Positions 16,687 to 22,278 of a stretch of 58,687 nucleotides of DNA are shown one piece after another. Numbering within the stretch: position 1 is the stretch's first letter; each line of letters opens with the position of its first letter. Position numbers and translations under genes: made by a program. Under the pieces are notes generated by a model, which did no database searches, had not been told where the DNA came from, and saw nothing but the letters and a program-made list of their open reading frames with translations. This DNA is from an uncultured Candidatus Saccharibacteria bacterium (GTDB taxonomy: Bacteria; Patescibacteriota; WWE3; CAZQFB01). The stretch is taken from positions 1 to 58,687 of the forward strand of contig CAZQFB010000005.1 of NCBI GenBank assembly GCA_964592525.1, read 5' to 3'.

Positions 16687-16970
16687 TATTTATCCCCCCC
16701 AATAGAAATACTTTCTCCTTTAGCTAATTGAACATAAGCTTTCTTCCAATCATCTAAGCGGGCATAGCGTCGGGTTCCAGAAACCCGACGTTGTTTACCA
16801 AGCAGACAAATAGTACGTACCGAAGATACTTTCGTGTGGTATGTTTTTTCTACTTCTTGAGCAATTTGTTGTTTGGAGGCTGAAACCGAAACAGCAAAAA
16901 CGTACACACCTTTACCTTCAACTGAAGCGCTTTTTTCACTTATTAATGGTTTAACTAAAATTCTTTTCAT
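16686..16970 (-). CDS. rplW: 50S ribosomal protein L23
   Basis: [25 protein letters not shown]. Confidence 0.96.
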
Positions 16971-17830
16971 AATTTACGTAAACAATCTAAAATCTCGTCA
17001 ACACTCGTTTTACCTAAGCCTTTAATAGCTAGTAATTCTTCGGGGGAAAGTAACCGCAATTCTTCAATATCGACCAATCCTGCTTTAGATAAAGCATTTA
17101 ACGACCGCGTAGACAAACCTAAAGAATCTAATAGCAGAGCACCAGCTGAAACTCCTGGGGTAGTCTTTTTAACCTTATCTTTATCGGGAGTGCCCCTCAT
17201 ACCAGTTTTGACCATCAAGCGCTGTTGGAGGGGCAACAGTGCTTCGGCACTTAGCAGAATATTATCATGCTGCATGATTAAAAAAGGGTTTAGTACCCTT
17301 TCTGGTACGATATTAACCAGGGGAAGATTTCGGACAGACAAAACTAAATCGGGTAAAGGTTCTTTAATAATAATTAAAGTTGAGCCCTTAAGTTCAGCTT
17401 TATCAATAAATTGCTGCATCAGCTTGACACTCTTATTTGTTTCAGGCACAGTTTGTAGCACCTTTAAATGGTTTTCGCTGACTCTTAGAGATAAAGAGTT
17501 TCGCAACGCAGCGCTAGTCATCTTTTTAGTCATTTTTAAAGCTTTAAAGTCACCTCTTGGACCATGTGTCACACCACCCCCAACCCATAATGGAGAACGG
17601 ATCGAGCCATGACGAGCGCGCCCTGACCCTTTCTGGCGCCACGGTTTTTTTCCGCCACCACGAACTTCAGCTCTCGTTTTAATAAACCCTCTGGCTTGTC
17701 TCCTTTTAGATAAAGCTACCCGTACCGCTTGGGTAAGTAATCCAAAATTGGGCGCTAAACCAAAAATGTTTTCCGGCACTTCCACTTGACTAACCAGCTG
17801 ACCTTGATTGTTGATGACATCAATTTTCAT
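16967..17830 (-). CDS. rplD: 50S ribosomal protein L4 fused to a C-terminal RNA polymerase alpha-CTD-like (HhH) domain, 287 aa
   Basis: L4 core KTRAEVRGGGKKPWRQKGSGRARHGS. A K/T/P-rich linker leads to LDSLGLSTRSLNALSKAG...SPEELLAIKGLGKTSVDEI. Start at ATG 17830. Confidence 0.96.
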   Translation of the reverse strand: MKIDVINNQGQLVSQVEVPENIFGLAPNFGLLTQAVRVALSKRRQARGFIKTRAEVRGGGKKPWRQKGSGRARHGSIRSPLWVGGGVTHGPRGDFKALKMTKKMTSAALRNSLSLRVSENHLKVLQTVPETNKSVKLMQQFIDKAELKGSTLIIIKEPLPDLVLSVRNLPLVNIVPERVLNPFLIMQHDNILLSAEALLPLQQRLMVKTGMRGTPDKDKVKKTTPGVSAGALLLDSLGLSTRSLNALSKAGLVDIEELRLLSPEELLAIKGLGKTSVDEILDCLRKL

Positions 17831-18281: not shown

Positions 18282-18297
18282 TTTTCCTTTACTTACC

Positions 18298-18320
18298 AAA
18301 AAAGCGCCAAAACTGGCGCT
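18298..18320 (-). terminator. intrinsic terminator-like hairpin between rpsJ and rplC
   Basis: Minus strand reads AGCGCCA-GTTT-TGGCGCT-TTTTT: a 7-bp stem with a U tract. Confidence 0.6.
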
Positions 18321-18412
18321 AAAGACGACACCTAGTTTTGCCTTACGTTTTAAATACAACGTACATTGCTTTGCTTTTCATGCTGCTTCTTATTAATCAG
18401 CTGCTTAGACCA

Positions 18413-22166: not shown

Positions 22167-22250
22167 ACTTTAATAGTAACGATAAACAAAAAATCCCCAC
22201 AATTCCAAGGGATCTGAGCAGAGACTCAGTTGTTGACCCGAAGCGGATGT

Positions 22251-22278
22251 ATTTTAACAGACAAGTAACCTATGTCAA
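22251..22278 (-). promoter_or_regulatory. sigma70-type promoter for fusA
   Basis: TTGACA (22278-22273), 16-nt spacer, TGn-TAAAAT (22256-22251). Confidence 0.65.

Follow-up and report, generated by a model that had tools for sequence, protein, structure and literature searches.

The stretch of DNA considered here, called the window throughout, comprises 58,687 nucleotides (nt) of contig CAZQFB010000005.1 (assembly GCA_964592525.1). Its host is a candidate-phyla-radiation (CPR) bacterium of the WWE3-type class, whose genome measures 0.85 Mb in 10 contigs with 42.5% G+C. On the minus strand of the window, the ribosomal-protein operon begins with rplC and continues in the order rplC-rplD-rplW-rplB-rpsS-rplV-rpsC-rplP-rpmC and beyond; rpsJ lies upstream as the last gene of a fusA-tuf-rpsJ unit. 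The 131-nt spacer between rpsJ and rplC, referred to below as the rplC leader, is the subject of this report. The following features, all on the minus strand, are found from rpsJ to rplC:

18724-18413, minus strand: rpsJ (S10), taken from the open reading frame (ORF) list, with its stop codon TAA at 18415-18413
18412-18282, minus strand: rpsJ-rplC spacer, the rplC leader, 131 nt, read from the sequence
18381-18343, minus strand: putative leader mini-ORF MKSKAMYVVFKT, 12 codons, read from the sequence, with ATG at 18381 and UAA at 18345-18343
18363-18344, minus strand: hairpin UACGUU-GUAUUUAA-AACGUA, present in every fold, lying within the 3' half of the mini-ORF and overlapping its stop codon
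18340-18328, minus strand: antiterminator 5' strand CAAAACU-A-GGUGU, which pairs with 18319-18308
18320-18303, minus strand: terminator hairpin AGCGCCA-GUUU-UGGCGCU, 7 bp (5 G-C), -11.6 kcal/mol, from the sequence and a terminator scan
18319-18308, minus strand: antiterminator 3' strand GCGCC-AGUUUUG, covering the terminator 5' arm and loop plus 2 nt of the 3' arm
18302-18297, minus strand: U-tract UUUUUU of the intrinsic terminator, read from the sequence
18289-18285, minus strand: rplC Shine-Dalgarno sequence AAGGA, unpaired in both folds
18281-17820, minus strand: rplC (L3, short form of 153 amino acids), ATG at 18281-18279, first gene of the operon that the leader would regulate

The terminator consists of AGCGCCA (18320-18314), a GTTT loop (18313-18310) and TGGCGCT (18309-18303). 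For the competing fold, CAAAACT (18340-18334) pairs with AGTTTTG (18314-18308), A18333 is bulged, and GGTGT (18332-18328) pairs with GCGCC (18319-18315), which gives a helix of 12 bp including two G-U pairs in the GGTGT/GCGCC part. The two folds are mutually exclusive because both use the 5' arm and the loop of the terminator. An earlier note, made from this sequence alone, had reported the 131-nt spacer, the terminator, the alternative pairing and the TACGTT/AACGTA hairpin, and all four were found again at the same positions; its proposal that the folds exclude each other is borne out by the shared strand, by the folding energies and by the covariation described below. The note had placed the end of the U-run about 17 nt before the rplC ATG, where the measured distance is 15 nt, and it did not name the mini-ORF.

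Folding with ViennaRNA gave -13.2 kcal/mol for the antiterminator against -11.6 kcal/mol for the terminator, and the pair probabilities in the free-leader ensemble are 0.97-0.99 for the antiterminator and about 0.01 for the terminator. The rplC Shine-Dalgarno sequence is unpaired in both structures, so the switch appears to act on transcription and not on rplC translation. The UACGUU/AACGUA hairpin, common to all predicted folds, could be a pause hairpin for RNA polymerase; by-eye inspection of leaders found hairpins within the mini-ORF in two other families as well. The hairpin at 18320-18297 is the top-ranked terminator-like site in a scan of 16 kb. However, this single copy is not beyond chance: the same 16-kb region contained 10 terminator-like sites compared with 13.3 ± 3.9 in shuffles, and the fold of the whole spacer reached only z = -1.39. 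It is conservation that lifts the element above chance. No family in Rfam 15 matched the window leader (E<=10) or nine related leaders (E<=1).

The comparison was made with 60 genomes of the class from 18 families, which together with the source genome give a set of 61; none of them is closer to the source genome than class level. Both rpsJ and rplC were located in the 60 genomes, and the regions 3' of rpsJ and 5' of rplC were aligned. The S10 of the window is 54-80% identical to that of relatives in the class. In 48 of the 61 genomes, an automated scan placed a perfect-stem G+C hairpin with a T-run ahead of rplC, for the most part 5-40 nt from the start codon, and nearly all relatives carry a T-run behind the hairpin. 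A spacer of at least 100 nt between rpsJ and rplC is the rule in the class. Thus, the statement in the earlier note that a short gap is usual at this position is correct for bacteria at large but not for the class to which the window belongs. No terminator-like site was found between rpsJ and rplC in roughly 45 non-CPR loci (Verrucomicrobiota, Planctomycetota, Bacillota and others). Elsewhere in the phylum, where 60 genomes representing about 58 further families were compared, 13 genomes (12 families) have such a site within 36 nt of rplC. The short form of L3 (about 145-155 amino acids, lacking roughly 55 internal residues) is found in the whole class and in two other families of the phylum, f49 and f71, and in both of these rplC is likewise preceded by a terminator-like hairpin; L3 is full-length in most other Patescibacteria.

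The linkage of the hairpin to rplC was most evident where the two flanking genes have separated. In 11 of the 60 relatives (G005, G009, G014, G022, G025, G029, G030, G037, G038, G042 and G048), rpsJ and rplC are unlinked, either by 1-6 kb of inserted genes or by location on different contigs. The hairpin was found before rplC, and not behind rpsJ, in all 11, so the element is a leader at the 5' end of the rplC operon and not the 3' terminator of tuf-rpsJ. The rpsJ-rplC junction is also a recurrent insertion site, and rplC keeps its leader in the 11 split genomes. The stem itself is conserved in sequence, as GCGCC...GGCGC in most families and as GCCGC...GCGGC in family f6. A search for GCGCC-N3-8-GGCGC-N0-3-TTTT returned 34 distinct sites in the 61 genomes, half of which (17/34) lie directly upstream of rplC. 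The source genome has a single GCGCC..GGCGC site with a T-run, and its other terminator-like hairpins, about 180 in number, have unrelated stems.

The antiterminator is conserved along with the terminator. In many families there is a strand, 4-30 nt ahead of the hairpin, that can pair with the upper part of the 5' arm and with the loop and that co-varies with the loop. In the window this strand and loop are CAAAACUAGGUGU / GCGCCAGUUUUG, and in four genera of family f5 they are GAUUUGGU / GCCAAAUC; further pairs in relatives are UUAGGUGC / GCGCCUAA, UAAAGGGUU / GGCCCUUUA, CAAGGG / CCCUUG and UCUGGG / CCCAGA. A shuffle test on single genomes was weak (mean z = -0.83, with p<=0.05 in 25% of leaders). 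Since many shuffled sequences can still pair with the G+C-rich arm, a swap test restricted to the loop segment took its place, in which the pairing of each upstream region with its own loop-centred target was compared with its pairing to the targets from the 33 other genomes. Own pairs averaged -8.0 kcal/mol compared with -6.2 kcal/mol for swapped pairs; the summed energy corresponds to z = -5.8, and none of 20000 permutations reached the observed value.

Family f6 has a different geometry, with the complementary strand 90-150 nt upstream of the hairpin and just 3' of a promoter. A MAFFT alignment of ten f6 leaders showed a 9-bp helix that is paired in 94.4% of cells, with compensatory changes at two positions (CG/UA/GC and UA/CG). 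None of 500 shuffles reached the observed values, and slid registers remained at or below 41%. The earlier note had named RNA folding and covariation in related genomes as one way to examine the switch, and both the swap test (z = -5.8) and the compensatory pairs of f6 came out in its favour. Its placing of an attenuator after rpsJ instead of before it is likewise upheld by the conservation across the class, by the linkage to rplC where rpsJ is unlinked, by the covariation and by the folding energies. The sequence elements, their conservation, their covariation and their predicted energetics are matters of observation, and with them the rplC leader is very probably a genuine transcription attenuator.

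The leader also contains the mini-ORF. In the window, its UAA lies 2 nt before the antiterminator 5' strand, and upstream of its ATG there is only a weak Shine-Dalgarno-like AAGAAG; a second in-frame ATG at 18366 encodes MYVVFKT. A 12-codon frame of unrelated sequence is also present in the closest relative found (L091, with an S10 80% identical). The start codon of the L091 frame lies just 7 nt behind the rpsJ stop codon, so this mini-ORF could be translated by re-initiation after rpsJ. Family f5 has the frames MGIDIFDS, MRINIFDS, MEIFDL, MILRIFDS and MGNLDP, all of which end 2-7 nt before GAUUUGG, and many genomes of family f14 have frames of 6-14 codons. In 28 of 36 genus-level representatives, an ATG frame of at least 5 codons ends upstream of the hairpin centre at a distance of 29-45 nt. 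Dinucleotide shuffles gave 6.2 ± 2.3 genera for the same 29-45 nt window (maximum 15 in 1000), other 17-nt windows gave 1-7 and the antisense strand gave 1. The antiterminator strand begins 1-14 nt past the stop codon in 23 leaders outside family f6, and therefore lies within the stretch covered by a terminating ribosome. The peptides themselves (MKSKAMYVVFKT, MGIDIFDS, MINIKI, MFKRLTFERLTKDKP and others) have no codon run and no common sequence.

Some leaders depart from this arrangement. In two genomes (G008, which equals L038, and L222), the rpsJ stop codon itself is located 32-41 nt before the hairpin centre and replaces the mini-ORF; ribosomes translating rpsJ may do in these genomes what the leader ORF does elsewhere. 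The f6 leaders (L035, L046, L052, L056, L060, L064, L068, L072, L075 and L078) have an invariant T.ATG about 10 nt past a conserved -10 box, and the f6 mini-ORF would thus be leaderless or nearly so. It begins M[FLPV]KR... and has 15-33 codons, with exactly 15 codons and a Pro-stop end in three genera. A hairpin within the f6 ORF also shows compensatory changes (CCUUCG/CGAAGG and CCUUCA/UGAAGG).

The adjoining mini-ORF stop and antiterminator strand point to ribosome-mediated attenuation. The proposed switch has three parts: the intrinsic terminator, the competing antiterminator helix and the 12-codon mini-ORF, with its UAA 2 nt before the antiterminator 5' strand. When no ribosome is on the leader, the antiterminator would form first and, being more stable, would let the polymerase read into rplC-rplD and beyond. 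The footprint of a ribosome extends about 13 nt beyond the A-site codon. A ribosome located at the mini-ORF stop while the polymerase is at the U-tract would therefore mask CAAAACUAG; with CAAAACUAG masked, the terminator hairpin would fold and transcription would stop. Ready initiation and elongation would lower transcription of the operon, a shortage of translation capacity would raise it, and the mini-ORF, with its weak start site, would act as a gauge of the free ribosome pool. That the sensor responds to translation in general, and not to one amino acid, is suggested by the missing shared sequence and codon runs and by the rarity of Shine-Dalgarno sequences. We infer that the mini-ORF is translated, that termination takes place in vivo and that the response has this direction.

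A masking calculation agreed with this scheme. The ribosome at the stop codon was represented by keeping 28 nt around it unpaired. This raised the predicted probability of the terminator in the window from 0.08 for the free leader to 0.94, compared with 0.19 for a ribosome placed 4 codons earlier. For f6, a ribosome at the start codon raised the predicted probability from 0.00-0.05 to 0.9-0.99. We put the probability that the position of a ribosome on the mini-ORF is the trigger of the rplC-operon attenuator at roughly 0.55.

Several observations weigh against the ribosome as trigger. The 29-45 nt window for the ORF ends was picked after inspection of the data; for this reason 12 further WWE3-type public genomes were tested, and a frame ending in that window was found in 11 of the 12. 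Most mini-ORFs, including that of the window, lack a convincing Shine-Dalgarno sequence. Among the hairpin-bearing families of other Patescibacteria classes, the ORF is present in just 5 of 13, and the mini-ORF model is not claimed for those classes. The details vary by family, and the best antiterminator strand of f6 overlaps the start codon instead of following the stop. For about 24 of 32 relatives, the equilibrium prediction favours the terminator even when nothing is masked, and no switch is predicted; the antiterminator in these leaders could matter only kinetically, since it forms before the 3' arm exists. Finally, the conservation of the GCGCC/GGCGC stem across families could also mean that a protein recognizes it.

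Recognition by a protein is the basis of an alternative that we consider rather unlikely, in which the leader is autoregulatory and a free ribosomal protein encoded by the operon (L4, L3 or S8) binds it and favours the terminator, on the model of the Escherichia coli S10 leader or the Bacillus subtilis rplJL leader. The position before rplC-rplD suits this explanation, as does the terminator/antiterminator layout, which is typical of ribosomal-protein leaders in Firmicutes (PMC4538822). The GCGCC/GGCGC stem is kept across families and is specific to rplC, much as the stem of the rimP-leader is kept (PMC2965389), and a candidate archaeal L4 leader is also located upstream of rplC (PMC7247131). 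However, no sequence or structure beyond the hairpin is shared across families that could serve as a common protein site, ten leaders match no ribosomal-protein leader in Rfam, and the positionally conserved mini-ORF is left unexplained. Nor was an rRNA-like motif found, in a check limited to three other GCGCC..GGCGC sites of the genome (contigs 1, 2 and 9), with no Rfam match. The L4 fusion described below is unique to the source genome. A very G+C-rich palindrome, GCCCCGCCCGGCGCCAGTGGGCGCCGGGGACGGCGG, was noted at C9:17354-17367 (L172) in a genome of 42% G+C; it has no Rfam match at the gathering threshold.

The conserved terminator could also be constitutive and leaky, and simply set the ratio of EF-G/EF-Tu/S10 mRNA to the mRNA of the ribosomal proteins downstream, the upstream strand and the mini-ORF having no regulatory function. 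EF-Tu is required in excess of ribosomal proteins, no promoter is evident in the window spacer, so that rplC depends on read-through, and the terminator wins at equilibrium in most relatives. This explanation is nevertheless improbable, because the hairpin stays with rplC and not with rpsJ in 11/11 unlinked cases, and because several families have their own promoter upstream, where such a terminator would stop a barely begun transcript. Neither the covariation of the antiterminator nor the conserved position of the ORF is expected of a passive terminator. Least probable is a switch driven by another signal (a small-molecule riboswitch, pausing sensitive to nucleoside triphosphates or an attenuator dependent on NusA/NusG), with a mini-ORF that only protects the transcript from Rho or decay. 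The leader peptide of B. subtilis rplJL blocks Rho and does not choose between folds, which speaks for such a protective role. However, the leaders are short (about 60-130 nt) and keep no core resembling a ligand pocket across families, there is no match to an Rfam riboswitch, and the fixed spacing from stop codon to antiterminator points to the position of a ribosome.

The transcript that carries the window leader is probably initiated at the fusA promoter, since no promoter is evident in the spacer: a scan found no sigma70-like promoter there, and candidates picked by eye were poor, such as TTAATA 9 nt before the mini-ORF ATG, which has no -35. The upstream features are as follows:

22278-22251, minus strand: fusA promoter, near-consensus, TTGACA-16-TG-TAAAAT
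22166-20049, minus strand: fusA
19983-18793, minus strand: tuf

Family f6 has a sigma70-type promoter of its own (TTGAAC/TTGCTA-17-TATCAT/TATTAT) about 100-160 nt upstream of the T-run, also in its unlinked cases, and a promoter scan confirmed it for one genome. The fusA leader of the window (22184-22278, minus strand; about 80 nt) contains a terminator-like hairpin, ATCCC...GGGGAT, followed by TTTTTTG. It may be a second attenuator, of different design, on this cluster of translation genes. A second copy of the rplC-leader design is ruled out, as there is no ATG before fusA.

The L4 of the window carries a C-terminal domain resembling that of the RNA polymerase alpha subunit (alphaCTD), and the earlier note had proposed from this L4-alphaCTD fusion that the leader and L4 form a self-contained feedback circuit. 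This part of the note found no support. Among the 61 genomes, the fusion occurs only in the source genome; a search of the 60 relatives with the C-terminal domain of L4 matched rpoA and unrelated genes, never a gene beside rplC. The fusion (1/61) and the leader (about 48/61) thus do not behave as a co-evolved circuit, and the rplC leader is therefore far older and more widespread than the fusion. Nothing in the leaders, in their conservation or in the distribution of the fusion implicates L4, and an additional input from a ribosomal protein, L4 or another, alongside the ribosomes is possible. The source genome has four alphaCTD-like domains, namely in rpoA, in the L4 tail (window 16967-17170) and in two open frames of about 366 and 479 amino acids; the further coordinates are C9:11885-12061, C1:100179-100334 and C5:4359-4517. 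Most relatives have 1-3 alphaCTD-like matches besides rpoA.

The ribosomal-protein leaders of E. coli have a narrow distribution. If the scheme proposed here is true, the attenuator before the rplC operon, with roughly 15 genes, would be a main control point of ribosome synthesis in these bacteria, which, like the CPR in general, have tiny genomes and few regulators. The use of ribosomes as the sensor would amount to a simple homeostat without a described counterpart among ribosomal-protein operons. It is conceivable, at somewhat less than even odds, that across the WWE3-type class and some neighbouring classes the protein-by-protein autogenous control of S10/spc has been replaced or supplemented by a sensor of free ribosomes. 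On that tentative reading, occupancy of a mini-ORF lacking a Shine-Dalgarno sequence would mask the antiterminator and abort transcription, so that the ribosome pool would regulate its own synthesis. The leader would also account for the archaea-like layout of the locus, in which, as in the archaeal operons, rpsJ is next to tuf and the large ribosomal-protein operon begins at rplC. Since the rplC operon comes with a dedicated leader, and in some families with a dedicated promoter too, rpsJ is free to become separated from it.

Literature searches returned no leader-ORF attenuator of a ribosomal-protein operon and nothing on leaders in Patescibacteria; as far as these and the Rfam searches show, the mini-ORF attenuator of rplC is undescribed. 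The nearest relatives in design are the leader-peptide attenuators of Proteobacteria (trp, his, thr, leu and pheA), which likewise combine a short ORF, an intrinsic terminator and a competing antiterminator. In those systems, as is proposed for the rplC leader, termination follows when a ribosome arrives at the stop of the leader ORF and covers the antiterminator strand, and the hairpin in the ORF of the rplC leader could correspond to their pause site. In contrast to them, the rplC leader precedes the main ribosomal-protein operon and not a biosynthetic operon, has no regulatory codon runs or conserved peptide and mostly lacks a Shine-Dalgarno sequence. It also has no obvious 1:2 anti-antiterminator, and therefore the absence of translation predicts read-through and not termination.

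The S10 leader of E. coli, studied by Zengel and Lindahl, reportedly combines transcription attenuation dependent on L4 and NusA with translational control. Like the rplC leader, it has a terminator hairpin and a U-run tens of nt before an operon encoding L3/L4, and it exerts feedback control over the same set of genes. It is said to lie upstream of rpsJ, to have neither leader ORF nor antiterminator, to need L4 and to be confined to some Gammaproteobacteria. The rplC leader, in contrast, lies after rpsJ, travels with rplC and has both an ORF and an antiterminator.

Similarly, the rplJL leader of B. subtilis belongs to a ribosomal-protein operon, works by attenuation through alternative folds and includes a leader peptide (PMC4538822). 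Its sensor is the L10(L12)4 complex, which binds the anti-antiterminator, and its peptide is encoded downstream of the terminator and acts against Rho (PMC4538822), whereas the ORF of the rplC leader lies upstream and abuts the antiterminator. The candidate L4 leader of Archaeoglobi shares the location directly upstream of rplC-rplD-rplW-rplB, but it comes from another domain of life and has another structure, which is not a terminator/antiterminator with a mini-ORF (PMC7247131). The rimP-leader resembles the rplC leader in the sequence conservation of its terminator stem (PMC2965389). The antibiotic-responsive leader-ORF attenuators of Firmicutes, of the erm and ABCF types (see also PMC6851288), also have a short, poorly conserved ORF, let ribosome occupancy choose between terminator and antiterminator and respond to general translation stress. 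However, their antiterminator opens only when a ribosome stalls within the ORF, and the genes under their control are resistance genes, whereas the rplC leader targets a ribosomal-protein operon and its predicted default is read-through.

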